In this document: piece by piece, positions 30,177 to 54,530 of the stretch
How positions within the stretch are numbered: position 1 is the first letter of the stretch
Layout: every line of letters begins with the position of its first letter
Assembly (NCBI GenBank): GCA_947629405.1
Contig: CANRDL010000002.1
Coordinates: 23,417-87,416 of the forward strand
Source of the DNA: an uncultured Bacilli bacterium
GTDB lineage: Bacteria > Bacillota_I > Bacilli_A > RF39 > UBA660
DNA: 64,000 nt
Direction: 5' to 3'
Made by a program: the position numbers and the translations under genes
The notes under the pieces: generated by a model
What the model was told of the DNA's origin: nothing
Database searches by the model: none
What the model saw: only the letters and a program-made list of their open reading frames with translations

Positions 30177-30515
30177 TTAAATCATATACATATTAGAATT
30201 AGGATTTATTTCCGTTTCATCAATATTGTAAGTTACATTACTGGTATTTTCGAGTTTATTAACTCTTGTTTCCAATCTATTAATTTGTCTTTCAAGTCTA
30301 GATAATCTTGAGTCATAATCAGTATTTGAACTAATTTGATTATTATTATATCCTTGATTCATATTAAAATTAGCTGGTCCAGAGTAAAAAGATGAACTTT
30401 GACTGGCAGCACTATAAGGTGCCATATTTGGTCCCATATTCATGTTTGGTTGAGGTATAAATCCACTTGTTTGCATATTTGCTTCACTAAAAAAGGCATT
30501 TCGATTTTTTTTCAT
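30177..30515 (-). CDS. hypothetical N/Q/S-rich protein with C-terminal heptad segment
   Basis: 112 aa. Low-complexity N/Q/M/P region, then LSRLERQINRLETRVNKLEN. Confidence 0.45.
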   Translation of the reverse strand: MKKNRNAFFSEANMQTSGFIPQPNMNMGPNMAPYSAASQSSSFYSGPANFNMNQGYNNNQISSNTDYDSRLSRLERQINRLETRVNKLENTSNVTYNIDETEINPNSNMYMI

Positions 30516-33584: not shown

Positions 33585-33791
33585 TTAATAATAAGTTGGA
33601 TAGTAATAATTATAACCGTAATTATATCCATAACCAGGGCCATAATAAGGACCTGGTCGATAATTACTATAAATAGGACGAGGTCTAGTTAATCCTACTG
33701 CTGCTCCTCCAGTTACAGCACCAACTAAAAATGGAAAAAAGAATCCACCTCTTAAATTATTATTTGGATAATTATATGGGTAATAACGCAT
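33585..33791 (-). CDS. small Tyr/Gly/Pro/Asn-rich protein (spore-coat-like composition)
   Basis: MRYYPYNYPNN...GPYYGPGYGYNYGYNYYYPTYY with a central GG-rich hydrophobic stretch. RBS AAAGGGG. Confidence 0.45.
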   Translation of the reverse strand: MRYYPYNYPNNNLRGGFFFPFLVGAVTGGAAVGLTRPRPIYSNYRPGPYYGPGYGYNYGYNYYYPTYY

Positions 33792-33837
33792 AATAAAAAC
33801 CCCTTTCATAATAATGTATGTAGGGATTTAAAAATTG

Positions 33838-35460: not shown

Positions 35461-35469
35461 TGATATAAT
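35461..35469 (+). promoter_or_regulatory. extended -10 element ahead of the A1 gene
   Basis: TGATATAAT (TGnTATAAT), 25 nt upstream of the A1 start. The -35 is weak. Confidence 0.35.
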
Positions 35470-35493
35470 TATTTAAAATAAGGAGGGACTAAA

Positions 35494-36222
35494 ATGAAAA
35501 TAATAAAATATTTAACTTTATTTATAATTAGTTTTCTATTTTTAAGTTTATCTCCTAAAGCTATAACTGACAACTGTTCTGATAAAGAAGATATAGAACT
35601 TTCAAGAGCGGCTAGTCAAATTAAAACGGGTTATACTTATAAAGAAATTCAGGACGAAAGAATGATCAACGGGGTGTCAGTTGAATTTACAATTAATGTT
35701 TACAATATGAGCGATTTGCTTTATTTAGAAGTTTATGGAATCCCTGGAACACCTAAAACTACCTATACAACAAATAATGCTGTAAATGGCATAATTAATA
35801 TTCCTAATCTTTCATCATATACTCAAAATACTTATACTTTAATGTTTAAATCAAAAAATAGTAATTGTTTAGATAAAGTAATTTTAAATAAACAAATAGT
35901 TACACCAAAATACAATGAATATTCTCAAAGCTCAGAATGTGCTGATTATCCTAAATTTTCATTATGTCAAAAATTTTATAATACCAATGTCACTTATGAA
36001 GAATTCTCTGATAAATTAGATTCATATATTGAAAGTTTAGAAGAAATAAAAACTTCAAGTTCTAAAGAAAATAAAAAGGATGAAAAAAATATAAAAGAAC
36101 AATTAGTTCAAATTTATAAAAGCAACAAAAAAAATCTTCTATATACAGGATTATCCATTATCGTAATAGCATTAATTACTGGTATAGTAATTATGATTAG
36201 AAAGAGAATGAAAATAAAATAA
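35494..36222 (+). CDS. family-A protein 1: secreted 4-Cys domain with C-terminal TM anchor (no known family)
   Basis: Signal peptide. Conserved Cys pattern and the block VTPKYNEY...ECADYPKFSLCQKFYNTNVTYEEF shared with ORFs 40386 and 41178. K/E linker, C-terminal TM and an RKRMKIK tail. Confidence 0.6.
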   Translation: MKIIKYLTLFIISFLFLSLSPKAITDNCSDKEDIELSRAASQIKTGYTYKEIQDERMINGVSVEFTINVYNMSDLLYLEVYGIPGTPKTTYTTNNAVNGIINIPNLSSYTQNTYTLMFKSKNSNCLDKVILNKQIVTPKYNEYSQSSECADYPKFSLCQKFYNTNVTYEEFSDKLDSYIESLEEIKTSSSKENKKDEKNIKEQLVQIYKSNKKNLLYTGLSIIVIALITGIVIMIRKRMKIK

Positions 36223-36281
36223 TATATCAATTAACAATTAATTTTGTTAATTTTTTTTTAAATTAAAATTTTTAAAATAAA

Positions 36282-36310
36282 TTGTTTTTTTAAATTGGCA
36301 ATGATACAAT
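36282..36310 (+). promoter_or_regulatory. sigma-A-type promoter of the B1 gene
   Basis: TTGTTT (36282-36287), 17 nt, TACAAT (36305-36310), with TG at 36302-36303 (extended -10). Confidence 0.45.
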
Positions 36311-36331
36311 AATATTAAGGTAAGTGATAAT

Positions 36332-39300
36332 ATGAAAAAAATAAATAAATTAATTATTTTTAATTTAATGTTTATTTCTTTTTTCATTGGTATAAATTTT
36401 GTTAATGCCGTCTCTGGTAATGGTGCATCAATTAATGGTTCTGCAGGTGGTGGTTATTCTTCTGGAAGTGGTGGAAGTGGAACTGGCGATTATATTATTT
36501 TGAAAGCATCACCAGTTACAGGTTTTAGAATGACTTTAGTAGATGCAGAAGGAACAGTTATTGGAGAAAGTAAAGATTTTGTTGCAAATAGAGAAAATAA
36601 AATAGTTGTTCAAGGCGTTTTATATTATTCTAACAAAAAATATAACAGAGCATTAATTGTTAGTGGTAAAAAACCACAATTTCATCGATATCTTGGTTGT
36701 GGATATACATCCAGTAATTGTGATGAATCTTTAAATCCAAACTATGGCTATTATGGTACATTTTCTAAAAATAGAAATACCTATTATGAAGATTTTTTTA
36801 AAAATAAAAAGGGAATATTTGATACAATAAGTTCATTTAATAATAACAGTCCTATAAATAAAACAATTAAAATTAAAAATCAAGAAGTTTTAGAGGGTAA
36901 TTATAAATCTGTGGTAGATTATTTTAATAAGTTAAATAGTAAAGGATATAATAAAATAAATGATTTTGTAAAACAATGGTGGGGAAATAAAAATGATTTA
37001 AGTGAATTAGCTTGCGAAACTGATGGAGAACTTTTTGTTTTGGTTGAACCAATGATTACTGTAACTAAAGGAGCAGAATATTGGTTTGGCACTGTAACTG
37101 AAATAGCTAAGCTTATGCAGCAAATAAATCCTAAAAACGATATAGGATATTATGAAATGAGTAGATATTTATATGCTAGTAAGGTTGAGTTTAAATCTAA
37201 TGGTTTATCTACAAAGTTTAAAGGGCTAAAAAAAGTTACTAGTAGTAACAAACCAAAATCTGCAGATACTTTTTTAAAAAATAAAGCTTATGGTACTGGT
37301 ATAGTATGGATAAAAGCGGCCAATAAAGAAGCGTGTAATAATACTAAGCCCCCAACTTCAAAGAAAACAACTTGTAGCGATTATAAGGAAGATATTGGCA
37401 CGCTTGGACCTGGGGAAGGGAAAGTTTATCCAAGATATAAATATAAATCTAAAGCAGCTAATACATCAGTTATTAAAAAAGTTAATAATAAAAAAGTGAA
37501 TGAAGCAAAAAAATGTCTAAAGAATCCATCCAAAGATAATGAATATTGTACATCTTTAAGAACAGATTGTATGAAAGCTGCAACTTGTGCAGATTATACA
37601 TCTTTAGGAAATTTTTCTTATAATGGAAAAAATTATATGTATAATAAACAAAATGCAAATATAAAAGTCACAAAAGTAGGGGACGAAAATTTAAAAGGAA
37701 GTTTAATAAGATTAGGATGTTATAAAGAGGGAACCGAATACGATTGTAATTCAAGTTTTTCTGGAGTAAGTTCATCAAGTACATATAGGATAAAAGCAGG
37801 TACATTTAATTACGATGCTTATAGTAGTATTAATCAAAATGATGAAGATCTTCAAGACGATTATTTAGAAGCTTGTAAATGTAATTGTAATAGCGGTGGA
37901 AAAGCAATTGAAACAGGATGTACTATAAATACTGGAAAATGGGATGAAGAAACATTCAAAGTTTTAAAAACTGATAATTCAGATACTATGGATTATTATA
38001 ATATGCAATGTCCACCTTGTGAGTCATTTGACAACCCTCCTACTGATGGTGAAACACCAGGAACAAATACATGTACAGCTACAGCAGATAGTACAACTCC
38101 AAAAACTTGTGAGGACTATGCTAGATTTGATAATAAAGTTGACTTAAGTGGTAATATGTTACAAATTAAAGCATGTTTATCTACTTTATCTAATGGAACT
38201 GGGAAAAGTTTAAAAAATTTTTCAGAGATATATGGAGTTCCAACAATATGTAAAGAAGATTATTCAATAAATTATAATGCTGCTACATTTTCGACGGGTA
38301 TTAATACTTCATTCGGTATTGCTACATATTTGAATTTTAATAACGATAATAATAGGGTCAGTGCTGAAGCAACAAGGACATGTTGGTTAGACGAAGGAGA
38401 TACAGCAGATTTTGTAGAAAATGAAACAGTTCCTACTAGTATATATTGGGATACAGATTATTTTCATACTACCACAGCAGTTAATGAGCTACATGATGGA
38501 GCTAGCTTGGGATTTAGCCAAAGTGGTGGAGATAAAACAAGAACAGGTACTATAACAGTTAATTATAGCAATGGGTCTTCTCAACAATTTAAGGTTTCAC
38601 CTACTTATATTTCTTCTACAAATACTATTATTTATGGAGATGTAGACTTTGATAGTACATCATTATTTGACCCAAATCAAAACGAGCCAAATATGTCACC
38701 TTATAGCGCTCCAACTAATGCAACTAATGAAGATAATAGCGACATAAAAATTAGTTATAAAATGGCAAATGATAAATCTGTGATATATTATAAAATAGAA
38801 AAAAATAATAATAATATAACTTCATGGTATTGGTCGACTAACAATAAAAATAATGGTGTTAATTATACTTTTTATCCTTTAGGTAGCCCCGATGGTAATG
38901 CTTATCCTACTTTAAATATGTCTACTGATGAAAATGCTCTTAAAAGAGTAGGCAGAATTTATTTAAAATATAATGATGGATCTTTAAAAGAATATGTTGT
39001 AAAACCTGATCCTATAAGTGGAGAAAATCATTTTTATAAGGAAATTGAAATTAAACCTAATTCTGCAGCAAATACTATATCTAAAAGCACAAATGCTGAT
39101 GGAAGTACTAATTTAGGTATTACTGCTTTTTATTCATATGCTGTTTATCAAGATAATGAAGTTAATAATTTTTTATCTGAAAAAGATAATAAATCTGATT
39201 ATTACCCTAAGGCACCAGATCTTGGTTTTGATTATTATGAAAAAGTTCGTAATCAATCTTTTAGAGTAGATAGTACTAATTATTTAAATCCAACGGTTAA

Positions 39301-40303
39301 TCTAAATGAAAATTCTATTACTACTACGGTTAGGTATAATTATATTCCAACTACTTCATTTGCAATAGATTTGGTTAAAGCGGAATTCCAATATGATCCT
39401 AATCAATCTAGCGATACTTTTAAAGACCCAACGAGAAAAGTAGAAAAATCAGAATATAGTTATATAACTCCTGTTAAATCTACTGAATTTTCTAAGACAT
39501 CTACTAACACTACTGGTAGCGCATTTGAAAGTAAAAGTAATGCTAGTGATAAGGGTAATGTAAGAAAAATTGGACCTTCTGATACTGATGGTCATGTCTT
39601 TCCAATAAGATTTAGTACTGGTTATAATAAAAATGGATATGAATATTTAATGTGGGTTGAAAGTTATAATATGAATGAAAAAGCTTTGAATTACAAAGCA
39701 TCATATAATCAAGCTAATAATAATGAATGCTCTAATCAATATGCTTGCAATTATCTTGTAAGTGATAATGATTGTAAAAAGAATACAAGTGTATGTAGTT
39801 TAGTTTGTAATAATGAAAATGATTGTGAAGAAGTTTGTTATTGTCCTGATGATCCAACTGATCCTAATTCACCAGGAGAAGATCCTAAAGGTGGTGTAAA
39901 TTTTGTCTATACATCGATATCAACAGATACAGTTCTTGATAAAAAAACTACAACTGCTATAGGTGAAAATTGGTTAACGGAAAAAGGAGAAAAAACTATA
40001 AAAGAAATAGAAGAAACCTCTCACAAAGGTGAAACTTTTGATGATGATAATGCTATTTATACTATTAAATTAGATACTGAATTAGTAAATTATATTAAGA
40101 ATCAAACAGGCAAACAATATGTTACTTCACCAAACTGTACTGGAACATATAAAGTTGACGGAAAAGACATTCCTGACTTATATTATTGTGAAAGCTCATT
40201 TTTAGATGATTTAAAACTAAAATATAGTACAAAAATAGCAAATAATATTAAATATTATGCATATTATGATAGTAGTACTGGTACTTATTCAGCGTGGAAA
40301 TAA
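36332..40303 (+). CDS. family-B giant Cys-rich secreted protein 1 (1323 aa, no known family)
   Basis: Sec signal ...FVNA/VSG and a Gly-rich start. No TM and no LPXTG. Collinear conserved blocks with ORF 41942-44863 (MQCPPC, TGINTSFG, DYYPKAPDLGF, DGHVFPIRFST, Cys knot, AIGENW...FDDDNAIYTIKLD, terminal YSAWK). Confidence 0.6.
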   Translation: MKKINKLIIFNLMFISFFIGINFVNAVSGNGASINGSAGGGYSSGSGGSGTGDYIILKASPVTGFRMTLVDAEGTVIGESKDFVANRENKIVVQGVLYYSNKKYNRALIVSGKKPQFHRYLGCGYTSSNCDESLNPNYGYYGTFSKNRNTYYEDFFKNKKGIFDTISSFNNNSPINKTIKIKNQEVLEGNYKSVVDYFNKLNSKGYNKINDFVKQWWGNKNDLSELACETDGELFVLVEPMITVTKGAEYWFGTVTEIAKLMQQINPKNDIGYYEMSRYLYASKVEFKSNGLSTKFKGLKKVTSSNKPKSADTFLKNKAYGTGIVWIKAANKEACNNTKPPTSKKTTCSDYKEDIGTLGPGEGKVYPRYKYKSKAANTSVIKKVNNKKVNEAKKCLKNPSKDNEYCTSLRTDCMKAATCADYTSLGNFSYNGKNYMYNKQNANIKVTKVGDENLKGSLIRLGCYKEGTEYDCNSSFSGVSSSSTYRIKAGTFNYDAYSSINQNDEDLQDDYLEACKCNCNSGGKAIETGCTINTGKWDEETFKVLKTDNSDTMDYYNMQCPPCESFDNPPTDGETPGTNTCTATADSTTPKTCEDYARFDNKVDLSGNMLQIKACLSTLSNGTGKSLKNFSEIYGVPTICKEDYSINYNAATFSTGINTSFGIATYLNFNNDNNRVSAEATRTCWLDEGDTADFVENETVPTSIYWDTDYFHTTTAVNELHDGASLGFSQSGGDKTRTGTITVNYSNGSSQQFKVSPTYISSTNTIIYGDVDFDSTSLFDPNQNEPNMSPYSAPTNATNEDNSDIKISYKMANDKSVIYYKIEKNNNNITSWYWSTNNKNNGVNYTFYPLGSPDGNAYPTLNMSTDENALKRVGRIYLKYNDGSLKEYVVKPDPISGENHFYKEIEIKPNSAANTISKSTNADGSTNLGITAFYSYAVYQDNEVNNFLSEKDNKSDYYPKAPDLGFDYYEKVRNQSFRVDSTNYLNPTVNLNENSITTTVRYNYIPTTSFAIDLVKAEFQYDPNQSSDTFKDPTRKVEKSEYSYITPVKSTEFSKTSTNTTGSAFESKSNASDKGNVRKIGPSDTDGHVFPIRFSTGYNKNGYEYLMWVESYNMNEKALNYKASYNQANNNECSNQYACNYLVSDNDCKKNTSVCSLVCNNENDCEEVCYCPDDPTDPNSPGEDPKGGVNFVYTSISTDTVLDKKTTTAIGENWLTEKGEKTIKEIEETSHKGETFDDDNAIYTIKLDTELVNYIKNQTGKQYVTSPNCTGTYKVDGKDIPDLYYCESSFLDDLKLKYSTKIANNIKYYAYYDSSTGTYSAWK

Positions 40304-40345
40304 ATTAAAAGAATTTTTTAAAAATTCTTTTAATTTTGGGTTTTA
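40304..40345 (+). terminator. rho-independent terminator after B1
   Basis: aattaaaagaattttt / aaaaattcttttaatt long AT-rich palindrome followed by a T-rich tract. Confidence 0.5.
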
Positions 40346-40385
40346 TTTTTAAAAGCTTTATGCTATACTAAAAAGCAACTATGGG

Positions 40386-41078
40386 GTGATTATTTTGAAA
40401 AAGTTTTTATTAATATTAATTTTTGGAATTTTTAGTTTTTTAAATATTAATACAATTAATGCGGAAGATTTTTGTAATGCCAATGATGTTAGAGTAGATT
40501 ATACTTACAGAGAAGATTTTAGTGTATTAAAAGATAATAAAAAACTAAAAGATAATGAAGTTTTTTTCCATTACTTTATTAATGTTAGTAATCTTAATGA
40601 TAAAAATTATATCATAGTAAAAAATGATTTTAATAAAAAAGAAAAAAAGATTACTTCCAGTTCATTTAAAAGTGGTACTGCTACTTATGAATGGACTAAA
40701 TTTAATAAGGAAGTAGAATTTACTATTGATGTATATTCAGAAGATGAAAATTGTTCCAAAACTAAATTAAAAACTTTAACATTAAAAACTCCTAAATTAA
40801 ATAAATATTATCTGGATGATCAGTGTCGAGAAATTCCTGATTTTGAAATGTGTCAGCCCTTTTATGAGACCGATATCGATTATTCTGATTTTTATGAAAA
40901 TGTAAATATTTATCGTAAGCAACATAAAATGAAGCCCGTTTCAGAATTCGATATGACTATAAGAGGAAAAATATTAGATTTTTTAAAAAATAATATTTGT
41001 AGTACAACTATAACTATAGTATTATTTATAGGTGTTATTGCTATTATAATTAATAAAAATAAAAGAAATAATAAATAA
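40386..41078 (+). CDS. family-A protein 2
   Basis: Same architecture as A1. Block KTPKLNKYY...QCREIPDFEMCQPFYETDIDYSDF. C-terminal TM plus NKNKRNNK tail. The start may instead be the TTG at 40395. Confidence 0.6.
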   Translation: MIILKKFLLILIFGIFSFLNINTINAEDFCNANDVRVDYTYREDFSVLKDNKKLKDNEVFFHYFINVSNLNDKNYIIVKNDFNKKEKKITSSSFKSGTATYEWTKFNKEVEFTIDVYSEDENCSKTKLKTLTLKTPKLNKYYLDDQCREIPDFEMCQPFYETDIDYSDFYENVNIYRKQHKMKPVSEFDMTIRGKILDFLKNNICSTTITIVLFIGVIAIIINKNKRNNK

Positions 41079-41177
41079 GACTTTTTTAAGTCTTTTTTTA
41101 TTTACCCATTTACATTAACTTATTAATTATGTTATACTAATAATAGATTATTGTAGGAGAATATTGGAGGGAAATTA

Positions 41178-41945
41178 ATGAAAAAAGTCAAGATGTTTTC
41201 GTTGTTTTGCATATGTTTTATGCTCGGCGTATTAAGTATTAATGCTGCTGAATGCTCTGATAAAACTGTTGCTAAAAATGTAAAAGCAAAGTATGAATTA
41301 AAAAATGAGACAGACGAAAATTATGATCCATGTCCAGGGAAAGAATGTAGTCAGTCGGATTGGACAGTAGCACCACCTAAAGGTTATTATTATAATTTGA
41401 TTGTTAATAATTTAACTGATGATATGTATGTAGAAATTAGTAATGATTATAATGATAATTTTGATGCTGAAGAAGGTCAAACTACATATCCTGAAAAGGA
41501 TGTTATAAATGCCGACAAGTTTCAAAATGGTACTTTAACATATGAATCATTAAGAGTGTTTTACAGCGTAAATTATACAATTAATATTTATTCAAAAAGT
41601 AATTCTTGTTTATTAAAAACTATAAAACTTAAAACACCACTTGTTAACGAATATGTAAGTACAAAAAGTGATATATGTGCTAAAATACCAGATTTTGAGT
41701 ATTGCCAGGAATGGGTAGATGAAAGCATATCTGAAGATGACTTTTATAAAAAAGCCAAAGATTATGCCAATAAAAATAATGTTAACATCAAAAATGAAAT
41801 TCCTGATGAATATAAGGAAAAAGAACAAAAACAAGATAATAAAAGCAAAATAAATAATATTAAATTAATTTTAATATCAATTGTAATTTTATTAGCGATT
41901 ATAACTATAGTTACAGGAGTTATTGTTAGGGGGAAAAGAAAATGA
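41178..41945 (+). CDS. family-A protein 3
   Basis: Block KTPLVNEYV...ICAKIPDFEYCQEWVDESISEDDF. C-terminal TM plus RGKRK tail. Its stop overlaps the B2 start (ATGA). Confidence 0.6.
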   Translation: MKKVKMFSLFCICFMLGVLSINAAECSDKTVAKNVKAKYELKNETDENYDPCPGKECSQSDWTVAPPKGYYYNLIVNNLTDDMYVEISNDYNDNFDAEEGQTTYPEKDVINADKFQNGTLTYESLRVFYSVNYTINIYSKSNSCLLKTIKLKTPLVNEYVSTKSDICAKIPDFEYCQEWVDESISEDDFYKKAKDYANKNNVNIKNEIPDEYKEKEQKQDNKSKINNIKLILISIVILLAIITIVTGVIVRGKRK

Positions 41946-44863
41946 AAAAAAATAAAACATTAAAATTGTTATTACTAGTAATATTTAGTTTATTTATAAC
42001 AGTAAATGTTAAAGCTAGTATAAATATTTCTTATACTTCCGATTCAAGTATGTGGCATTGGGCAACATCCAATAATGGAACTGGAATTTTTGTTTCATCT
42101 CCAGAATATGCAACATTCGAAGGTAAAAATATTCAAATGTATTGTATATCTCCAATGAGAAATGATGATAGCGCCGTAAATGTAAAAAGTATAAAAAAAT
42201 CTAATGATTGTAGCAACAAAAATAGTTTTGAATGTTCAATGATTTGGGTACTAAAAAGTGAAAGTACATGGCAGACTAAATTGTTAGCAGCTCGTCTAGT
42301 TGCTAAAAAATATGGTAAGCTAGATACCGATGGTATTTGGAATCATGGCAATTATAATATTTATGAGTGCTCATTAAAAAGAATTGAAGGAAAATCTTCT
42401 TGTACTCCATATTGGACTGGTGGATACTATAATGCTGCTGTAGATTTATATAAAAATGCAACTAATAAATCTAATTTAGGCAAACTTTCCGATATGAAAA
42501 ATTTATATACATTATATTATGCTTACCCAGTTAATGGTTCAAGTTATCAGAAATATTATTTCATAACAACAAAAGAAAGAAAACAATGTAAAGATTATAA
42601 AAATAATGATTATGATGGTTATACTTATAATAAAAACAAAGCGGATACATTTATTGGAACTGATCCTAAAAAAGCTGATATTATAAATAAATGTTTTAAA
42701 AAGGCTGAAAAAAATAGTTGTAAATCTTATAAAAAACAATATAAAAATGAGTGGCCAAATTATAAATATAATTCAAATAGTGATGATAAAAAAGTTTCTA
42801 AGGGCAAAAATGAAACTATTAAACAAGCTGTAAAAAGAACATGCTTTATTCACAAAGTTTGTGCTGATTATAAAAATACAAAATATGCAGGATATGAATA
42901 TGATCCTTCTAAAGCAAATACAGAAGTAAATCAAGCAAATGTTAAAAAAACATGTTTTAAAAAGACAAATGATTGTGATTACTTAAAAGAACAATGTGAT
43001 AAAGGTGATGGAACTGCTTGTAATGAATATACTAAAAAAGCATGTAAAACTACCGATAAATGTAATATATCAGAAGCTGATATAAAAGCTGGTGTAGTTG
43101 TTAAGAATGCTAAAACTGGTGAAAAATTTGATGCAACTACTTGGGGATTATTAGAAAAATATGGTACTGAAGCCCAAAAAGAAGCATATACAACATATTG
43201 TCCTTGTGATTGTTCAAGCCCAGCTAGTGCAATTAACAGTGGAGCTTGTAATTTAAAATCAGGTGGAACATGGAATGAAACAACTTATAAAGATGTAAAT
43301 GATAAGGATGCCTATAATGCTGCTTGCCCACCATGTAATTTTAGTACAAACAAACCAACTTGCGCTAATGAAACAGATTGTTATAAATCTAATGAAGGTT
43401 TTTATAATGTTGATTTAAGTCAACTACAATTATCTGCTTGTGCATCTTATGATCAAAAAGACAAACTTCAAGATAAAGCCTATAAAGATGCAGGACTTGA
43501 AGCAGTATGTTATGAAACATATCAAATAACATATAAAGAAGGTGTAGTTGATACAGGTATTAATACTACTTTAGGAGTAACTAAATATTTAAAATTTGAA
43601 AATAGTACAGATGGAAAAATTGATAATAGAATTAAAATTAAAACTAATAAAATTTGTACAGTAAATGGAACTGAAGAGGCTGTAAAAACTGCTATTAGTA
43701 GTGGTAAAGATAATGACGATTATTATGCTGCTGCTCCATCATTAGGATTTACTTATGATGAAAAAATTAATAATCAAGGATTCTGGAATACAATGAATAC
43801 GGATTCAAGTATTTCTGAACCTGTCGCAGTTAGTGGCGTAACTGATTCTTATCAAACTACAGCTACTAAAACATATATTTATACTCCTGCTACAACATAT
43901 TATGTAGGAATAACAAATGCTCAATTCTATGCTCTTGCAAATGATAGTAAAGATAATGGAACATTATTTAGCGATTTAGTAGTAAAATCATATAATGATG
44001 CTTCTGATGCTGATAAAAAGAATATTAAAATGATTGGTAAAGATGGTCATATATTCCCAATTAAATTTTCAACTAAAGCTCAAAAAGTATATTATAATGA
44101 GGCAGATAATAAATATTATTTAGAAGATGAATATAAAAATCTAGCTGGGTATAATTACTCCATAACAGTAGATGATTATAATTTTGATGAATCATCTATA
44201 AATAAATCATTTACTAATCCAGAATGTAATAACTCTTATAGTTGTCGATATGTGATTAGTAAAAAAGATTGTAAAAACTCAACAAGTACTTGTTCATATG
44301 TATGTACAAAAGAAGTTGAAGAAAGTCAAAAAGCATCTAGTGCTTACTGTAGTGAAGTTTGTACTTGTATAGAAAATGGAACTACTGTTGAAAAAAGTAC
44401 AACACCTATATCAAGTTCTGGTTTAAACTTTGTATACACAAATATTACAACTGATACAATATTAGATACAGAAACAACTACTGCTATTGGTGAAAACTGG
44501 GATAATCAAAAAGGCTTAGATACTAAAAAAGCTATTGAAGAAGTATCACAAGCTGGTAAAACTTTTGATGATGATAATGCTATTTATACAATTACTCTTG
44601 ACTCAGATACAATTAAAGAAATAAAAGATAGTATAGAAAAAAATAAATCTTATGTAAATTTAGAAGGTATTAATTGTGATCAATTAGTTACTAAAGGTTA
44701 TGATACAGCTAGTAATAGTCCTACTGTTGTGTCTGAAGATGCTAATCTATATTATTGTACAAGTGAATTTATCAGAAATAATATTACTGATGAACAAAAG
44801 AAAAAATTAGAAGATTCATATGTAGCATATGCTAATGAAAAAAGTTATTCAATATGGAAATAA
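41942..44863 (+). CDS. family-B giant Cys-rich secreted protein 2 (973 aa)
   Basis: Sec signal ...VNVKA/S. Three tandem modules of about 40-47 aa of type C(K/A)(D/S)YK...CF(K/I)(K/H). C-terminal two-thirds collinear with B1 (ACPPC, TGINTTLG, DYYAAAPSLGF, DGHIFPIKFST, Cys knot, AIGENW...FDDDNAIYTITLD, terminal YSIWK). Confidence 0.6.
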   Translation: MKKNKTLKLLLLVIFSLFITVNVKASINISYTSDSSMWHWATSNNGTGIFVSSPEYATFEGKNIQMYCISPMRNDDSAVNVKSIKKSNDCSNKNSFECSMIWVLKSESTWQTKLLAARLVAKKYGKLDTDGIWNHGNYNIYECSLKRIEGKSSCTPYWTGGYYNAAVDLYKNATNKSNLGKLSDMKNLYTLYYAYPVNGSSYQKYYFITTKERKQCKDYKNNDYDGYTYNKNKADTFIGTDPKKADIINKCFKKAEKNSCKSYKKQYKNEWPNYKYNSNSDDKKVSKGKNETIKQAVKRTCFIHKVCADYKNTKYAGYEYDPSKANTEVNQANVKKTCFKKTNDCDYLKEQCDKGDGTACNEYTKKACKTTDKCNISEADIKAGVVVKNAKTGEKFDATTWGLLEKYGTEAQKEAYTTYCPCDCSSPASAINSGACNLKSGGTWNETTYKDVNDKDAYNAACPPCNFSTNKPTCANETDCYKSNEGFYNVDLSQLQLSACASYDQKDKLQDKAYKDAGLEAVCYETYQITYKEGVVDTGINTTLGVTKYLKFENSTDGKIDNRIKIKTNKICTVNGTEEAVKTAISSGKDNDDYYAAAPSLGFTYDEKINNQGFWNTMNTDSSISEPVAVSGVTDSYQTTATKTYIYTPATTYYVGITNAQFYALANDSKDNGTLFSDLVVKSYNDASDADKKNIKMIGKDGHIFPIKFSTKAQKVYYNEADNKYYLEDEYKNLAGYNYSITVDDYNFDESSINKSFTNPECNNSYSCRYVISKKDCKNSTSTCSYVCTKEVEESQKASSAYCSEVCTCIENGTTVEKSTTPISSSGLNFVYTNITTDTILDTETTTAIGENWDNQKGLDTKKAIEEVSQAGKTFDDDNAIYTITLDSDTIKEIKDSIEKNKSYVNLEGINCDQLVTKGYDTASNSPTVVSEDANLYYCTSEFIRNNITDEQKKKLEDSYVAYANEKSYSIWK

Positions 44864-44879
44864 AAGGGGTGAATAAAGA

Positions 44880-45296
44880 ATGAAAGAAAGTTATTGGGGC
44901 TATTGGTTAATATTATTAGGAATTTTAGTTGTAGTTATATTAATGCTTGTTCAAAGTTATACAACTACTAATACTCAAGATTATTACTTAATTAAAGAAA
45001 CTACTGAAGCAGCTATGGCTGATGCAGTTGATTATAGTTATTATAAAAACTATGATGAACTAAGAATTAATAAAGAAGTATTCATGGAAAGCTTTATTAA
45101 AAGATTTGCTGAAAATGCATCATTATCAAAAGATTATACAATATCTTTCTATGATATTTATGAAGCTCCACCTAAGGTTAGTGTAAAGGTTACTAGTAAA
45201 TCTAAATCATTTACTATTAACGGTGATGAAAATTCTTTAGATTCAGTTAATAAGTTATCATCAGTTTTACAAATTAATATGAAAAATAGATCATAA
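44880..45296 (+). CDS. pseudopilin-like protein (TadE/F-like N-terminus)
   Basis: MKESYWG followed by a hydrophobic helix (YWLILLGILVVVILMLV). Leader type shared with ORFs 52442 and 52960. Begins 16 nt after B2. Confidence 0.45.
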   Translation: MKESYWGYWLILLGILVVVILMLVQSYTTTNTQDYYLIKETTEAAMADAVDYSYYKNYDELRINKEVFMESFIKRFAENASLSKDYTISFYDIYEAPPKVSVKVTSKSKSFTINGDENSLDSVNKLSSVLQINMKNRS

Positions 45297-45315: not shown

Positions 45316-46209
45316 ATGGGTGTTGCAATTAAGAGATTTTTAAGCAATAAAAACACCGTTACAATTATAGGTGTAATATTAGGAATAGTTGTATTATATA
45401 TTGGTTACACTTGGCGTGTAAATAATGCTTTAGAATTAGTTTCTGTTCCTGTTGCAAAAGAAGAAATTGCTTCTCGTACGAAAATAACCGAAGATATGTT
45501 GACTTATATCAAATTACCTAGAAATTCTATCGAATCATTAGATAATTTGGAAACTTCAGCTAGTAATATTGTTGGTAAATATGTATCTTTTGGTACGAGT
45601 ATTGCAAAAAATAGTATGTTTTACACATCATATTTAATTAGTAAAAGTGAAATGCCAGATTCAGCTTTTGCCAATATCCCTGATGGATATACAATATTTA
45701 GTCTAGACGTTACTCAACATTCTACATACGGAAATTCAATTTATCCAGATAATTATATTGATTTGTATTTAAAAGCTACTGATGATTCAGGAAAAGTTAT
45801 TTTTGGAAAATTAATTTCTAGTATTAAAGTTTTAGCAGTAAAAGATAGTAATGGTAATCATGTATTTGAAACAACTGTTGAAACTAGAACCCCAGCTGAA
45901 TTACTATTTGCTGTAACTGATGATATGTTCTTGCTATTAAAGAAAGCAGAATATATTGGTTGTGAAATTTCTCCAGTACCAAGAAATGCTTCCTATAGTG
46001 CCGATCCAGGCGAAACTAGTGTAGCTAATGATTACCTAAGAGATTTCATCTTATCAAAAGCAGCAACTATACCTGATTCAGAAATTACAACGACAGAAGA
46101 TTCTGTAAATGAAGCAGAAGATGAAGATACAACCGAAATTACTAGTTCTAAAAAGACAAGTAGTACTAAAAAAACAAGTAGTACAAAAAAGGCAAGTAGC
46201 AGCGAATAA
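45316..46209 (+). CDS. cpaB: CpaB/RcpC-like Flp pilus assembly protein (SAF-type domain) with Ser/Thr/Lys repeat tail
   Basis: N-terminal TM then LVSVPVAKEEIASRTKITEDMLTYIKLP, typical of the CpaB N-terminal domain. The tail is SSKKTSSTKKTSSTKKASSSE. Confidence 0.5.
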   Translation: MGVAIKRFLSNKNTVTIIGVILGIVVLYIGYTWRVNNALELVSVPVAKEEIASRTKITEDMLTYIKLPRNSIESLDNLETSASNIVGKYVSFGTSIAKNSMFYTSYLISKSEMPDSAFANIPDGYTIFSLDVTQHSTYGNSIYPDNYIDLYLKATDDSGKVIFGKLISSIKVLAVKDSNGNHVFETTVETRTPAELLFAVTDDMFLLLKKAEYIGCEISPVPRNASYSADPGETSVANDYLRDFILSKAATIPDSEITTTEDSVNEAEDEDTTEITSSKKTSSTKKTSSTKKASSSE

Positions 46210-46236: not shown

Positions 46237-47448
46237 ATGAACGAAGCAATATTTTCACAAATAGATTTTGGCCCTTTAAAGGAGTACCTAGAAGAAGACA
46301 ATATTACCGATATTTCTTATGATAATGGTGGACAACTTTGGCTTAAAACTTTGGATAAAGGAATTTATCGAATTGAAAATCCAGCTATTAATAATGCTTT
46401 AATAGAAAAAATAGCATTCCAATGTTCAAATGTTATGGGAAAAACATTTAATATGGCTGAACCATTTTTGGATGCTGAAAGTACAGAGCTTCGTTTAAAT
46501 TTTATTCATGAATCAATTGCTACTAATGGAATTGCGATGGTTATTCGTAAAACTCCTGCCAAGATTAGATTAAATAGAGAAAAATTACTTGATGAGCAAT
46601 ATGTTACAAAAGATTTATTAGATTTTTTAATAAAATGTGTCCATGCGCGATGCAATATTATAGTTAGTGGTGAAACTGGTTCAGGTAAAACAGAACTTGT
46701 TAAATATTTGGCCTCAAATACTATGGAAAATGAAAAAATCATTACTATTGAGGATACTTTGGAATTACACTTAGATCGTATATTTCCTCATAGAGACATA
46801 GTTGCTATGAAAACTAATAATATTGCTTCATATACTGATGTTTTAGTTACCTGCATGAGACAGAATCCCATATGGATATTATTGTCTGAGGTTCGTTCAG
46901 CTGAAGCTGTATTAGCAGTTCGTAACTCAATATCATCTGGACATCATATTTTATCAACAATCCATGCTGATAAAGCATCATCAATTCCCATGCGTATGTA
47001 CTCACTTCTTGAAAGTAGTCAAGATGTTGATCAATTTTTAGCATCAATTCATAGATATGTTCAAATTGGTATATATGTAAAAGGTTATTTTTCTAAAGAA
47101 CTAAATAGATTTCAAAGAGAGATTATTGAAGTTTGTGAATTTTATGTTGATGATGATAATAAACCTAAAAGTAATATAATTTATAAAAAGACTTTAGATG
47201 GAAAAATTAGTTTAAATAATCCAACTAAGCATTTATTAGATTACTTTAGTATTTCTAATGTAGAAATAGACGAAGATACTTTCCATCTTGGAACAAATGA
47301 AGCTAATAATGAAAGTACAGAAGAAAATGTAAATCAAGAAAATAGTGTTTCAGAAACTGTTACTGAACCTTTAAAAAATAATACTACAGTTCAAGATTCA
47401 GCAGATTTACTAAATTCTTTAAGATTAAATAATATTGAAACATTGTAA
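46237..47448 (+). CDS. tadA: TadA/CpaF-family secretion ATPase
   Basis: Walker A IIVSGETGSGKTE, ITIEDTLEL, RQNPIWILLSEVR, His-box LSTIHA. Followed by two T2SS-F-type membrane proteins. Confidence 0.85.
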   Translation: MNEAIFSQIDFGPLKEYLEEDNITDISYDNGGQLWLKTLDKGIYRIENPAINNALIEKIAFQCSNVMGKTFNMAEPFLDAESTELRLNFIHESIATNGIAMVIRKTPAKIRLNREKLLDEQYVTKDLLDFLIKCVHARCNIIVSGETGSGKTELVKYLASNTMENEKIITIEDTLELHLDRIFPHRDIVAMKTNNIASYTDVLVTCMRQNPIWILLSEVRSAEAVLAVRNSISSGHHILSTIHADKASSIPMRMYSLLESSQDVDQFLASIHRYVQIGIYVKGYFSKELNRFQREIIEVCEFYVDDDNKPKSNIIYKKTLDGKISLNNPTKHLLDYFSISNVEIDEDTFHLGTNEANNESTEENVNQENSVSETVTEPLKNNTTVQDSADLLNSLRLNNIETL

Positions 47449-47475: not shown

Positions 47476-48369
47476 GTGGTATTAATTATTTTATTAATAA
47501 TTGCAGCTTTTGTAATTACCTATAGAACTAATACAGGTGAAAAAACATCTAAGTTTTTTATAGAAAAAATTACACAAGCTTATAACAAATATGCCCCAGG
47601 AAGATTTAAAGAAGTAAGAGAAAAAGCAAAAGAACTTGGTCAAGAATATACCCCACGTCAATATTTAACTCAAGTAGTTATTTTGGGTGTATTTTTTGGT
47701 GGAGTTGCTTTTTTATATTTTTGGAATTTAATTATTGCCATTATTTATGCTGTAGCAGCTATTTCTTTTGTACCATATCTAGCTTTACTTCGATGCAAAA
47801 GAGTTTACAGTGAATATATTTTTGAACAAATTCAAGTATATACAACAAACACTATAATGGAATTTAATACTACTCAGTCTTTTGTAAAATCATTAGAAGG
47901 AGTAAGAGATTCTGGAATTATAGAAGAACCTGTATTAAGTGATTTAAAAAAGATGATAGACTTATCTTATGAAAATGGTACAATTGAAGAATCTATAGAA
48001 TACTTTAATCAAAGATATCCATTTTATATGGTAAAAAATATGCATCAATTATTTTTACAAATTACTAATGAAGGTGCTAAAGATTCTGGAGAATCTTTAG
48101 AAAATATGTCTATGGACATTGACACACTTGTTGAAGGTGTTTATCGTGATAGAATGGACAGAAAAAATTTCCATAAAAGATTTTTAACTTTTGGTTTTGT
48201 ATTATTTTTCCTAGTTGTTGCTATGCAACTATTATTAGGTCATGATTCATATATAGAAATTGCTAAATTGTGGTATGTTAATTTATTACTTCATGCCATA
48301 ATTATCGCTAATTGTTACTTCCTTTTAAAAGGTGAGAAGTATTATAATGAAGATGTGGGGGCTGAATAA
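47476..48369 (+). CDS. tadB: TadB-like platform protein (T2SS-F domain)
   Basis: GTG start. N-terminal TM, central cytoplasmic helical domain and C-terminal TMs. Position after tadA. Confidence 0.6.
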   Translation: MVLIILLIIAAFVITYRTNTGEKTSKFFIEKITQAYNKYAPGRFKEVREKAKELGQEYTPRQYLTQVVILGVFFGGVAFLYFWNLIIAIIYAVAAISFVPYLALLRCKRVYSEYIFEQIQVYTTNTIMEFNTTQSFVKSLEGVRDSGIIEEPVLSDLKKMIDLSYENGTIEESIEYFNQRYPFYMVKNMHQLFLQITNEGAKDSGESLENMSMDIDTLVEGVYRDRMDRKNFHKRFLTFGFVLFFLVVAMQLLLGHDSYIEIAKLWYVNLLLHAIIIANCYFLLKGEKYYNEDVGAE

Positions 48370-48371
48370 TT

Positions 48372-49160
48372 ATGTATATAGAAATAATATTTTTAGGCAT
48401 TGCCATATTCTTTATAATGAATTATACAGGACGAATTAGTACTAATAAATTTATTGAAGAAAATAATGACATTTTTGAAAAATTAAAAGAAGATGACTTT
48501 GACTTTTATGTTCATGCTAAATATGGTCCAGAAAGAGATCCAGATGTTTTATTTAAAAAAAGAATGAAAAATGCTATATTAACTTTCTTTGTGGTTTTAA
48601 TTTTCTTTATCGCTAGCTTAGATTATATTAAATTTTTGTTAGCAATAGGTATAGCATTTGGTGTATTTAAAATGGATTATATTCAACTTAAATCCTATTA
48701 TAAAGGAAGATTACATGAAATAGATTTATTACTACCTTATTATTTAAAGAACTTAGAAATCTTAATTCAACACTATACCGTTCCCGTTGCTATAGGAAAA
48801 TCAATTGAAACAGCTCCAGCTATATTTAAAGAAGGTTTACAAAAAATGATTAGTGAAATTAATGCTGGGGATCAAAGTATTGAGCCTTATATGCAATTTG
48901 CTAGAGATTATCCGGTAAGAGATTCCATGCGTATGATGAGACTTTTATATCGTTTATCTTTAGGTCGTCAAGAAAGAAAACAAGAACAATTATTAGCATT
49001 TTCTAAAACTATTTCTAACTTACAACAAAAAGCTAGAGAAACTAAATATAAAGAAAGACTAGAAAGAATGGAAAAAAAGACAATGCAAATGTTAGTAATT
49101 ACCGGTGTTGGCTTAATGATCTTGCTAGTTGTATCTTTATTGATGATGTTTAGTAAATAA
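48372..49160 (+). CDS. tadC: TadC-like platform protein (T2SS-F domain)
   Basis: Same topology as the preceding ORF. LLPYYLKNLEILIQHYTVPVAIGKSIETAP...EINAGDQSIEPYMQFARDYP resembles the T2SS-F repeat. Confidence 0.6.
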   Translation: MYIEIIFLGIAIFFIMNYTGRISTNKFIEENNDIFEKLKEDDFDFYVHAKYGPERDPDVLFKKRMKNAILTFFVVLIFFIASLDYIKFLLAIGIAFGVFKMDYIQLKSYYKGRLHEIDLLLPYYLKNLEILIQHYTVPVAIGKSIETAPAIFKEGLQKMISEINAGDQSIEPYMQFARDYPVRDSMRMMRLLYRLSLGRQERKQEQLLAFSKTISNLQQKARETKYKERLERMEKKTMQMLVITGVGLMILLVVSLLMMFSK

Positions 49161-51899: not shown

Positions 51900-52121
51900 A
51901 TGAAAGAGGCGACTGGAGAATTAAATATGACAGTAATTACTGTTGTTGCAATAGCTGCAATAGCGGCAATATTCTATGCTTTTGTTTGGCCAGCAATCAA
52001 AACAAGTTTAGCTGAAAATACTTGTTCTACAAAATGTCCTAATGAAAGTAGTGGAATGTCTTGTTTTGATGCTTGTATGAGTTCTGCAAATAATTCTCAA
52101 GCAAATAATAAAATAGGATAG
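51900..52121 (+). CDS. Flp-like small pilin 1 (non-canonical leader)
   Basis: 73 aa. MKEATG/ELNMTVITVVAIAAIAAIFYAFVW hydrophobic helix. C-terminal region has four Cys. Strong RBS AAGGAGG. Confidence 0.55.
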   Translation: MKEATGELNMTVITVVAIAAIAAIFYAFVWPAIKTSLAENTCSTKCPNESSGMSCFDACMSSANNSQANNKIG

Positions 52122-52163
52122 TAGATTAAGCAAAAATCTTTAAAAAATAGGAGGCCATAATAT

Positions 52164-52433
52164 ATGAAAGAAGCAACTGGTGAATTAAATATGACAGTAA
52201 TTGTCGTTATTGCCATAGCTGCTATGGCTTCTTTTTTCTTTGGCTTTTTTTGGCCTAGTATAAAAAATAGTTTTGATAGTGATACTGCTTGTAATAAAGC
52301 AAATTGTGAGTATGGTGAAAATGGTAATAATGTTAAAGATGGTTATTATATTTCTTGTTCATATACTTCATCAAAATCTGGTGAAGAACCAAAAACTTAT
52401 GACTTAGATGGCAAATGCCCTTACAAAGGATAG
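52164..52433 (+). CDS. Flp-like small pilin 2 (paralogue)
   Basis: 89 aa. The first 13 residues are identical to pilin 1 (MKEATGELNMTVI), followed by a related hydrophobic helix. Divergent C-terminal region, also with four Cys. Confidence 0.55.
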   Translation: MKEATGELNMTVIVVIAIAAMASFFFGFFWPSIKNSFDSDTACNKANCEYGENGNNVKDGYYISCSYTSSKSGEEPKTYDLDGKCPYKG

Positions 52434-52441
52434 TGAAGTAA

Positions 52442-52942
52442 ATGAGAGAATCTTATGGAGCTGGATGGCTTACACAAATTGTAATTGTATTTATACTGCT
52501 TTTTGCAGCTATTATTTGTTATGCCATAAATTTCGGAAAAGCATTTAAAATAAAGAATCAAATTGTTGAAGATTTAGAATATTATGAAACACCGCGTGCT
52601 GCTAAATGTGCAATTAGTGATTATTTACAAGATGTCGGCTATCGAAAAATGTCCAATATAGACGAATTGCCAGCCGATGAAGATAAAGATAATTGTAAAG
52701 GGTATAATATTGATGGAAATGCATCTACAGATATGAAAGATAATGCTTACTATTTTATTTGCCAACATCATAGTAATGTAAATAATGCTGATATTCATAA
52801 AGTTTATTATAAAGTTTATGTATTCTGGGGCTTTGATTTACCTATTTTTGGGGATCTTTTAAATTTTGAAATGGCAGGGACAACTAAAAATTTACCATAT
52901 AGTGAAGATTGGAATACAGATACTACAACACCTTGTAGATAA
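52442..52942 (+). CDS. TadE/TadF-like pseudopilin 1
   Basis: MRESYGAGWLTQIVIVFILLFAAII N-terminus. About 166 aa. Paralogous to the next ORF (VYVFWGFDLPIFGDLLNFEMAG vs VVLFYDFNIPLISEVFNFKFKISG). Confidence 0.5.
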   Translation: MRESYGAGWLTQIVIVFILLFAAIICYAINFGKAFKIKNQIVEDLEYYETPRAAKCAISDYLQDVGYRKMSNIDELPADEDKDNCKGYNIDGNASTDMKDNAYYFICQHHSNVNNADIHKVYYKVYVFWGFDLPIFGDLLNFEMAGTTKNLPYSEDWNTDTTTPCR

Positions 52943-52959
52943 AAAGGAGAGTAGATTAA

Positions 52960-53463
52960 ATGAGAGAATCAATTGGTGGAGCATGGATTTATGCATTAGT
53001 ATTAGGTTTTGTATTATTATTTACTTCTTTTATATCTCTAGCAATTAGCTATAATAAAGTTTTTAAAGTTAAAAATGAAGTGTTATCTATTATTGAAAAA
53101 TATAATGGAGTTAATGAGAAAAACAAAGATATTATTTCTAACTATTTAAATACATCTGGATATAGCGCAGAAGGAATAAATGCTGACAAATGCAAAGATA
53201 TTGATGAAGACGAAGCTACAGAAATTAATCGAACAGGGTATAAATCTTATGGAGAAGTTGTTGGGGATGTTAAATTATCAGATGACAAAACAATGTGTAT
53301 AAAAAGAATTCAAAGAGAAAAAAATGTTTATATTTACGATGTAGTTTTATTCTATGATTTTAATATTCCTTTAATAAGTGAAGTTTTTAATTTTAAATTT
53401 AAAATTTCAGGACAATCTCAAGATATTTATTATCCTAATGATTTACCTAATTTAACTAAATAA
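52960..53463 (+). CDS. TadE/TadF-like pseudopilin 2
   Basis: MRESIGGAWIYALVLGFVLLFTSFI N-terminus. Paralogue of 52442-52942. Confidence 0.5.
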   Translation: MRESIGGAWIYALVLGFVLLFTSFISLAISYNKVFKVKNEVLSIIEKYNGVNEKNKDIISNYLNTSGYSAEGINADKCKDIDEDEATEINRTGYKSYGEVVGDVKLSDDKTMCIKRIQREKNVYIYDVVLFYDFNIPLISEVFNFKFKISGQSQDIYYPNDLPNLTK

Positions 53464-54471: not shown

Positions 54472-54500
54472 TTGACAAAATATAATATTTCGATTACAAT
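54472..54500 (+). promoter_or_regulatory. near-consensus sigma-A promoter
   Basis: TTGACA (54472-54477), 17 nt, TACAAT (54495-54500). Confidence 0.6.
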
Positions 54501-54530
54501 ATACTTAGGTTTATAGAAGGAGAGGTTTAT

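Follow-up and report, generated by a model that had tools for sequence, protein, structure and literature searches.

We analysed a stretch of 64,000 nucleotides (the window) of contig CANRDL010000002.1 from an uncultured Bacilli bacterium, in which an array of two gene families, here called A and B, runs into an operon resembling that of Tad (tight adherence) pili. The array consists of five open reading frames (ORFs) in the order A1, B1, A2, A3, and B2, all on the + strand. A first-pass annotation of this DNA had reported these ORFs with the same order, strand and coordinates, together with an ATGA overlap between A3 and B2 and a gap of 16 nt after B2, and all of this was reproduced. A1 (35494..36222, +) encodes 242 aa with a signal peptide, a predicted immunoglobulin (Ig)-like ectodomain, four conserved Cys residues, a K/E-rich linker, a C-terminal transmembrane (TM) helix, and a basic tail. 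It is an extra A copy, which does not overlap a B gene and is separated from B1 by 109 nt; its orthologue in locus L001 is 60% identical. B1 (36332..40303, +) encodes a secreted, Cys-rich giant protein of 1323 aa, the orthologue of which is P0018. A2 (40386..41078, +, 230 aa) is an A-family paralogue on the 3' side of B1 that is uncoupled from any B start, and the same B-then-A2 order was found in L001 and L091. A3 (41178..41945, +, 255 aa) is an A-family paralogue translationally coupled to B2 (41942..44863, +), another secreted, Cys-rich giant protein of 973 aa; the stop codon of A3 and the start codon of B2 share ATGA. The 16 nt after the B2 stop codon lead to the gene of a protein with the DUF5411 domain (44880-45296). 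The G+C content of the window is 22-31%, and chromosomal housekeeping genes such as RNase R and SmpB-like ORFs are present at the flanks. A scan for promoters and terminators was uninformative in DNA of 25% GC, as 85 promoter-like sites were found where 82 were expected and no terminator was found on the + strand.

A1, A2, and A3 are mutually 25-30% identical. Their first Cys lies 3-5 residues into the mature protein and is followed by three more conserved Cys residues, and the motif that had been reported for the family was recovered as P154, N157, C167, P171, C176, Q177, and F189. Five positions (C26, C144, P154, N157, and C176) show no variation across 86 non-redundant A homologues, and the conservation of C167 is at least 90%. 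At least four Cys residues past the signal peptide and a basic tail are present in all 97 complete A homologues and a C-terminal hydrophobic segment in 95 of them. A profile search of protein databases with the A family returned 13 relatives. The AlphaFold2 (AF2) model of A3, calculated from an alignment of 14 sequences, showed a mean predicted local distance difference test (pLDDT) score of 77.9 and consists of a beta-sandwich ectodomain, a small helical subdomain carrying the CQ motif, a long helix, and a C-terminal TM segment. When this model was compared with PDB and BFVD by Foldseek, only generic Ig-like sandwiches were returned, none of them at E<=1e-3, and a profile search of PDB with the A family gave no match. 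The assignment of A as a lipoprotein was rejected because there is no lipobox ahead of the first Cys.

B1 and B2 matched each other by BLASTP with an E value of 2e-50 (33% identity over 474 aa) and in a second collinear segment with an E value of 2e-15, which by sequence comparison puts their paralogy far beyond chance. Both start with Sec-type signal peptides (MKK.., a hydrophobic core, and an AxA-like site). Neither an LPXTG motif nor a TM segment past residue 40 was found in any of 77 complete giant proteins, in line with what had been noted for B1 and B2, and the median Cys content of these proteins is 3.4%. A sortase-anchored LPXTG adhesin was thus rejected, since B has no C-terminal LPXTG motif or hydrophobic segment. 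The family is rare in databases; only four relatives of B2 were found among 5.8 billion clustered proteins, and when 1.84 billion cluster representatives were searched exhaustively by HMMER, the B profile returned eight.

The N-terminal region of B1 is unrelated to that of B2. B2 starts with an N-terminal 'YCxxP...R' domain (42029..42577, +, aa ~30-212), whose Cys and Pro do not vary and whose Arg is near-invariant, and a domain of this type recurs in 22 of the 77 giant proteins. It is followed by three Cys-bounded repeats of ~40 aa (42578..42976, +, aa ~213-345) with the pattern C.DYK...GY.Y...KA......CFKK. The copy number of the repeats depends on the strain, as P0001 (locus L003) has one fewer than B2, and P0003 and P0004 have more. 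The family core (43142..44146, +, aa 401-735) contains the blocks CxCxC...CPPC, GINT, AP.LGF.Y.E, and DGHVFPIKFST, and the C-terminal domain (44126..44860, +, aa 729-973) contains a Cys cluster, VS...L.PN..R..G.NW, EIE..GE.Y, and C.S.F, and ends with YSIWK-COOH. In B1, the core shared with B2 covers aa 496-842 (+) and the C-terminal domain corresponds to 39653..40300 (+, aa 1108-1323), which ends with YSAWK. Compared with B2, B1 has an insertion of ~235 aa at aa ~690-925, in which two similar segments (TGTITVNYSNGSSQQFKVSP and VGRIYLKYNDGSLKEYVVKP) and a weak match to BACON (E 0.016) were observed. A Gly/Ser-rich stretch at the start of B1 is also absent from the other B proteins.

The N-terminal domain of B2 was compared with known families. 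A papain-like peptidase was rejected for lack of a conserved His. The invariant Cys in the context [YF]C.[DSN]P, which is shared by B2 and 21 other giant proteins, resembles that of thioester domain (TED) adhesins, and weak matches to PF08341 (TED) were obtained for 2 of 21 members with an E value of 0.0077, far under the Pfam threshold. However, the position of the Gln in the TED motif (TQxA[IV]W) is occupied by Q, E, K, or other residues, and the assignment to TED was rejected. Unlike TED adhesins, B has no LPXTG motif.

The first-pass annotation had described conserved blocks running collinearly through B1 and B2 behind divergent N-terminal regions. This holds within the narrow B family of about nine non-redundant members, to which the core blocks are confined even at the level of hidden Markov models (HMMs). 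Beyond it, the wider superfamily has only the last ~240 aa in common. An iterative HMM built on the last ~170-240 aa converged on 82 of the 83 giant proteins and matched each of them at its extreme C-terminal end, so that the design of a variable N-terminal region and a conserved C-terminal domain, first seen in two proteins, generalises to the superfamily. The consensus of the domain comprises a cluster of about nine Cys residues, VS...L.PN..R..G.NW, EIE..GE.Y, EYS..L, IR.YN, C.S.FL, and a terminal G..WK. The exact terminus [WFY]K-COOH is present in 66 of the 83 giant proteins, with the consensus (V/I)GP(A/S)WK. As a control, an HMM was built from 71 distant members only and searched at Z=1e6 against a set including shuffled decoys. 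It matched B2 at aa 754-964 with an E value of 4.9e-11 and other members of the narrow family with E values of 1e-26 to 6e-12. No shuffled decoy was matched, and the sole 'decoy' matches were further giant proteins that had not been in the set. B1 was not matched directly by the control HMM and is linked to the superfamily through 46% identity to the domain of B2.

The rest of the giant proteins is hypervariable and modular. The 83 proteins sort into 40 clusters by their variable parts, in which Pfam recognised only Peptidase_M23 (two clusters) and collagen repeats (one cluster). The giant proteins carrying M23, namely L083 2635-9981 and one related cluster, are 2200-2450 aa long, and the M23 matches have E values of 2e-19 to 4e-16.

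DUF5411 is much better conserved than A and B, being 71-86% identical in loci where B is only 25-37% identical, and was therefore chosen to fetch related loci. The sample, anchored on DUF5411 with one genome per GTDB species, comprised 79 loci. Their records are named 'uncultured Bacilli', 'Mycoplasma sp. CAG:472', 'CAG:956', 'Coprobacillus sp. CAG:605', 'Tenericutes', and 'Candidatus Coprovivens', the last of which is filed under Bacilli incertae sedis; we take these to be RF39-type reduced-genome gut Bacilli. Adjacency was counted only for the 62 DUF5411 genes with at least 8 kb of upstream DNA. A giant protein with the C-terminal domain is encoded directly upstream of DUF5411 in 60 of these 62, and an A gene lies immediately 5' of the giant gene in 57 of those 60 loci (57/62 overall). 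Two of the three loci scored as lacking A appear to be artefacts of the adjacency rule, caused by an over-long ORF call (L011) and by an A-A-B-B order (L027). In the third (L037), an A gene and a 303-aa ORF precede the giant gene. The layout throughout is an A gene (216-290 aa), a giant ORF (900-2450 aa), a gap of 13-21 nt, and DUF5411, and in most loci the stop codon of A overlaps the start codon of the giant gene by 4 or 1 nt. The A-family HMM gave 100 matches with E values of 5e-87 to 4e-12, that is, in essentially every locus with enough upstream DNA.

The copy number of the cassette is mostly one. Other loci contain A-B-A-B, A-A-B-B, or tandem A-B-DUF5411 triads, two of which are present in each of L038 and L047. 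When loci were reached via A or B themselves, the same arrangement upstream of DUF5411-CpaB-TadA was found in seven of eight, the exception being L091. In the metagenome-assembled genome GCA_947627975.1, the order is A, A, B (1566 aa), A, A, B (965 aa), DUF5411, a gene at the CpaB position, the T2SSE ATPase, two genes at the platform positions, and YfhO; a near-identical strain has A, B (934 aa), DUF5411, and the remaining operon. The order A-B-DUF5411 also surrounds two distant B members (P0019 and P0021), and distant A members (P0017 and P0015) lie 5' of a giant ORF and DUF5411. A scan of metagenomes with the alignment of 14 A sequences returned two loci, and a metagenome contig reached via the A motif carries an A gene (253 aa) that overlaps an ORF of 967 aa, behind which lie an ORF of 143 aa and the machine genes. 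Judging from gene order, the array in the window is a duplicated form of a cassette that is universal in the whole clade and not private to one genome, and DUF5411 belongs to the module. The first-pass annotation had stated that its link to the tad operon would be refuted by A and B homologues lying routinely away from tad genes; this was not observed, as the homologues almost always lie directly upstream of the operon.

The DUF5411 protein of the window (44880..45296, +) has an MKESYWGYW N-terminus, a hydrophobic helix, and a domain of ~100 aa. It matches PF17424 over the full length with an E value of 7e-56 and a score of 188 bits, the gathering cut-off being 30. The protein is 215-626 aa long in 26 other loci, where C-terminal domains are grafted onto it. 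These are Peptidase_C39_2 (7), Peptidase_M15 (2), and a weak CHAP (1) in loci L016-L019, L024, L026, L028, L034, L036, and L049, while sixteen further extensions of ~130 aa contain no known domain. The possibility that the long ORFs are DUF5411-CpaB fusions was rejected because the extensions are other domains. DUF5411 may be minor-pilin-like, as it has its N-terminal signature and hydrophobic helix in common with the four pilin-like proteins of the locus and its grafts resemble those of modular minor pilins; the grafts could equally mark a membrane-anchored wall hydrolase.

DUF5411 is followed by the gene of a CpaB/RcpC-like protein (45316..46209, +), which matched PF16976 (E 1e-5) and TIGR03177 (E 3e-11), both under the curated cut-offs, and by that of a TadA/CpaF/VirB11-like secretion ATPase (46237..47448, +). 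The ATPase matched T2SSE over the gathering score (E 3e-27) and the NCBIfam models TIGR03819 (TadA family, E 1e-28) and VirB11 (E 1e-32) under their cut-offs. Two polytopic membrane proteins of 297 and 262 aa, a size fitting for TadB and TadC, are encoded at the TadB/TadC position (47476..49160, +). The label 'Tad-like' is reasonable and rests mostly on the ATPase, together with the CpaB-like gene and the gene order.

The components of the locus evolve at very different rates. Median identity to the window, measured across 78 other species loci, was 75% for TadA, 67% for the TadB-like protein, 62% for the TadC-like protein, 57% for DUF5411, 51% for the CpaB-like protein, and 26-27% for A, and B gave no BLASTP match in all but one or two loci. 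The window was also compared with L003 at the strain level. The machine genes are 97-100% identical at the amino acid level, with nonsynonymous divergence (dN) of 0.003-0.014 and a ratio to synonymous divergence (dN/dS) of 0.04-0.15, and A3 is 97% identical (dN 0.014, dN/dS 0.08). B2 is 81% identical with 49 gap columns (dN 0.082, dN/dS 0.33), so that its dN against this near-identical strain is 6-25 times that of the machine genes, and the gaps include the loss of one Cys-bounded repeat. A pilin-like gene of 73 aa (51900-52121) is only 69% identical (dN 0.230, dN/dS 1.19), while its 89-aa paralogue next to it is 98% identical. B and the small pilin are therefore the two diversifying parts of the locus, a pattern that would be expected if both were exposed on a surface fibre. 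A mirror-tree analysis of 48 loci, in which the distances of TadA and TadB were controlled and significance was assessed by a permutation test, gave partial correlations of 0.38 between A and the B C-terminal domain, 0.40 between the B C-terminal domain and DUF5411, and 0.27 between A and DUF5411 (each p 0.001).

Scans of A, B, and their relatives against Pfam, NCBIfam, and PHROGs gave nothing over the curated thresholds, and sequence and profile searches of PDB with B2, its C-terminal domain, and its N-terminal domain gave no match. PDB searches with the TadB-like protein and DUF5411 were likewise without match. The statement of the first-pass annotation that no characterised domain family is recognisable in A or B is borne out by these searches, and no profile match to a known adhesin, toxin, or S-layer family, which it had named as evidence that would count against its proposal, was obtained for either. 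As far as these searches reach, there is no characterised relative of A, of the C-terminal domain of B, or of DUF5411. A phage or mobile-element origin was rejected, because there was no PHROGs match, no relative of DUF5411 in viral contigs, and housekeeping genes at the flanks.

Among the closest known counterparts of B are the tip adhesins of the PilC/PilY1 type and MshQ. Like B, these are large (~1000-1200 aa), Sec-exported, non-pilin proteins with a variable N-terminal and a conserved C-terminal part, and their genes lie beside minor-pilin genes. The ~10 residues at their C-terminal end are reported to join a PilK-type minor pilin as an added beta-strand, by which assembly is licensed and the adhesin is kept at the tip (PMC12918778; PilC/PilY1-type tip adhesins are also treated in PMC10191384). 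The function of PilC/PilY1 depends on the extreme C-terminal peptide, and B has a conserved motif that is strictly terminal. In contrast to these similarities, B shows no sequence or profile similarity to PilC/PilY1 and occurs in a monoderm host with a Tad-like machine and not in a type IVa system. No Pfam match to the PilY1 beta-propeller was found in B1, B2, or the 82 C-terminal domains, and the domain profile has no PDB match; the C-terminal domain of B is a Cys-rich module of unpredicted fold. Moreover, PilC/PilY1 has no counterpart of the membrane-anchored A.

Myxococcus Tad pili carry interchangeable, disulfide-rich tips from paralogous clusters (PMC12075869). The TadE/TadF/TadG Tips of Tad pili (KilL/M/N, CpaL) share with the cassette the Tad-type machine, the variable disulfide-rich distal domains, and the presence of several paralogous clusters per genome, which provide alternative tips. 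Their variable domain, however, is contained in a pilin with a class III signal and an alpha1 helix, and they have no A-like partner, whereas B has an ordinary signal peptide and a conserved part at the C-terminus. A class III signal followed by an N-terminal alpha1 helix was not found on B, the signal peptides being Sec-type. TcpF and CofJ resemble B in being non-pilin and Sec-exported and in their dependence on a simple type IV filament machine with its minor pilin (PMC10191384), but they are small (~35 kDa), are not hypervariable, have no sequence relation to B, and have no membrane co-factor. DUF5411 has been placed in computationally predicted 'secretion-related' operons of Roseburia, Ruminococcus, and Eubacterium (PMC9523054), the sole paper naming DUF5411 in the literature searched. 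These operons resemble that of the window in combining DUF5411 and a CpaF-type ATPase with a platform protein and a large uncharacterised one, and they differ in that a protein with remote similarity to Internalin-B is present and that the A family and the C-terminal domain are not described there. That type IV filaments can bear a variable tip or effector module is a known concept; the novelty lies in the components, in the dedicated membrane co-factor, and in the setting of a Tad-like machine in a monoderm, none of which was described in the literature searched.

On the basis of the likeness to PilC/PilY1, MshQ, and the Myxococcus tips, we propose a model in which B is the working end of the filament. 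We tentatively favour, with somewhat less than even confidence, the reading that A and B form a duplicated, exchangeable adhesin or effector module at the working end of a clade-specific Tad-like type IV filament, in which B docks by its C-terminus as PilC/PilY1 does and A is a membrane co-factor. The placing of B as a tip component or cargo is hinted at by synteny, evolutionary rates, and analogy. Conserved translational coupling and the partial correlation of 0.38 likewise hint that A docks, anchors, or chaperones B. In this model, A and B would be exported by Sec, as suggested by their signal peptides. B has no anchor of its own, and its N-terminal two thirds would be the hypervariable, modular, exposed part that binds a host or microbial ligand. 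B would be docked to the machine by its constant part, the Cys-rich C-terminal domain of ~240 aa with its free [WFY]K end. The likeliest docking partner would be DUF5411, encoded 13-21 nt downstream and presumably acting as a minor-pilin-like primer, and the pseudopilin-like proteins are further candidates. By analogy with PilC/PilY1 and PilK, the extreme C-terminus of B may add a strand to DUF5411. A would be co-produced with B through the overlapping stop and start codons as a type-I membrane protein with an Ig-like ectodomain, and would keep B at the membrane, as a holder or chaperone, until B is taken through the wall by the filament, for which the TadA-like ATPase would be the motor. The extra cassettes (A1-B1 and A2) may serve as alternative working ends.

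Several results weigh against this model. The co-evolution signal of A, B, and DUF5411 is modest because the distances of A and B are near saturation. B1 does not adjoin DUF5411 and has no overlapping A gene, and in L091 (3-3797) the genes behind a B-family ORF and an A2-type gene encode LemA, DUF2207, and a tRNA synthetase, with no tad genes. The AF2 model of B2 (10 sequences) is poor, with a mean pLDDT of 57.7 and values of <50 in the C-terminal domain, and its Foldseek matches are therefore not meaningful; the N-terminal domain and the Cys-bounded repeats reached a pLDDT of 70-84. The assignment to Tad is partial, as the proteins at the TadB/TadC position gave no T2SSF match in Pfam or NCBIfam. 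The pilins, too, match no curated model. The pilin-like proteins (MKEATGELNxTV) have no Flp G/XXXXEY motif, and no prepilin (A24) peptidase was found among the locus genes scanned. Exported Cys-rich proteins in a gut anaerobe would need an oxidising pathway. Finally, the peptidases found on DUF5411 (C39_2 and M15) and on giant proteins (M23) could point to work on the cell wall and not to display at a tip.

A and B might instead constitute a two-component surface adhesin that is independent of the filament, in which A is the anchor or stalk, B is held non-covalently, and the pair replaces the LPXTG/sortase system, the adjacency to tad reflecting co-regulation only. The C-terminal TM helix, the basic tail, and the long K/E-rich, stalk-like linker of A would suit such a role, as would a B protein without any anchor, the translational coupling and co-variation of the two, and the pair without downstream tad genes in L091. 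We consider this unlikely, since it leaves unexplained why the giant gene lies 13-21 nt 5' of DUF5411 in 60 of 62 loci, why the B C-terminal domain co-varies with DUF5411 as strongly as with A, and why the free C-terminus is strictly conserved. Another reading is that B is the substrate of a pseudopilus of the type II secretion kind, in which a Tad-like piston pushes folded B through the wall and releases it, with A as the membrane receptor presenting the substrate. B has a Sec signal and no anchor, relatives of type IV filaments secrete the non-pilin effectors PulA and TcpF (PMC10191384), and DUF5411 operons of Clostridia were labelled 'secretion-related' by computation (PMC9523054). Two small, fast-evolving pilin-like proteins, one of them with a dN/dS of 1.19, fit an exposed fibre better than a buried pseudopilus, and the diversification of B at the strain level fits a displayed antigen, although it is compatible with a released one too. 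We regard release of B by a piston as rather unlikely.

The peptidases also raise the question of a contact-dependent device for attack on, or attachment to, other bacteria and not the animal host, comparable to the Kil Tad system of Myxococcus with a peptidoglycan hydrolase as payload. Peptidase_M23 occurs in 2 of the 40 clusters of giant proteins, and DUF5411 carries C39_2 (7), M15 (2), and weak CHAP (1) grafts in other species. Several alternative cassettes per genome are reminiscent of the Kil 'Tips' (PMC12075869), and related lineages are reported to be reduced in genome and auxotrophic (RF39, PMC6784871); record names suggest that the window comes from this order. In the window, however, A, B, and DUF5411 carry no hydrolase recognisable by Pfam or NCBIfam, and no immunity gene was seen, although none was sought. 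Wall hydrolases on envelope-spanning machines (VirB1- and FlgJ-type) often serve the producer's own wall, which also counts against an interbacterial device, and we judge it distinctly improbable. That A and B are structural parts of the machine, forming a wall-spanning conduit or alignment complex where diderm Tad systems have a secretin and alignment proteins, appears very improbable. Hardly any locus lacks the cassette, and it shares the orientation of the machine genes and adjoins them tightly, but the core parts are 51-75% identical, whereas B is hypervariable, has a 2.5-fold length range, and is duplicated or swapped between close relatives.

The working-end model can be extended to a new class of type IV filament accessory system, in which A would hand the giant B protein via its free C-terminus to the DUF5411 primer. 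By means of this system, auxotrophic gut Bacilli of reduced genome would attach to other bacteria, and some species would also open these enzymatically, in a pilus-based epibiotic or predatory lifestyle. We offer this extension as an improbable speculation. Lineages related to the host are reported to be without many biosynthetic pathways (PMC6784871). The host Bacilli are common in animal and human guts and uncultured. The locus of A, B, and the Tad-like machine is probably their main exposed, fast-evolving surface structure, and the model gives A, the B superfamily's C-terminal domain, and DUF5411 a concrete, testable role. If the proposed docking is true, the C-terminal-strand rule for large non-pilin proteins would extend from diderm type IVa pili to a monoderm Tad-like machine, and the dedicated membrane co-factor would be a new element. 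The B proteins, hypervariable as they are, may be of use as strain markers and are candidate determinants of host or partner specificity.

The remainder of the Tad-like operon lies downstream of the platform genes. A full-length YfhO gene (49276-51816), which is glycosyltransferase-like and matched PF09586 (E 6e-149), sits within the operon between the platform-position and pilin genes, and a YfhO match was found in only 4 of 78 related loci. Its product may glycosylate the pilins or B in this lineage. The two small pilin-like genes (51900..52433, +, 73 and 89 aa) encode MKEATGEL followed by a hydrophobic helix and gave weak Pilin_N matches. Two pseudopilin-like genes (52442..53463, +, 166 and 167 aa) encode an N-terminus of the form MRES.G..W or MRE.IGG.W followed by a hydrophobic helix. 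Next are the genes of a conserved protein of 327 aa, which is at the TadZ position and may carry a degenerate P-loop, and a membrane protein of 134 aa (53488..54935, +). The N-terminal signature M[KR]E[AS]xxG with a hydrophobic helix is common to five proteins of the locus (starts 44880, 51900, 52164, 52442, and 52960) and is conserved over 38-63 loci; it differs from the Flp G/XXXXEY motif.

Apart from this operon, a 360-aa ORF at 60032-61114 has a classical type IV pilin N-terminus (...KQEGFTLIEMISVIALIG...). Its sequence hints at a conventional type IV pilus or competence system in addition to the Tad-like one, which would imply that the genome encodes a prepilin peptidase at another site. 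Two small low-complexity ORFs were observed on the - strand upstream of the array. That at 33585-33809 (74 aa) is rich in Tyr, Gly, Pro, and Asn (...GPYYGPGYGYNYGYNYYYPTYY), and that at 30177-30515 (112 aa) is rich in Asn, Gln, and Ser and has a short coiled-coil-like segment at its end.

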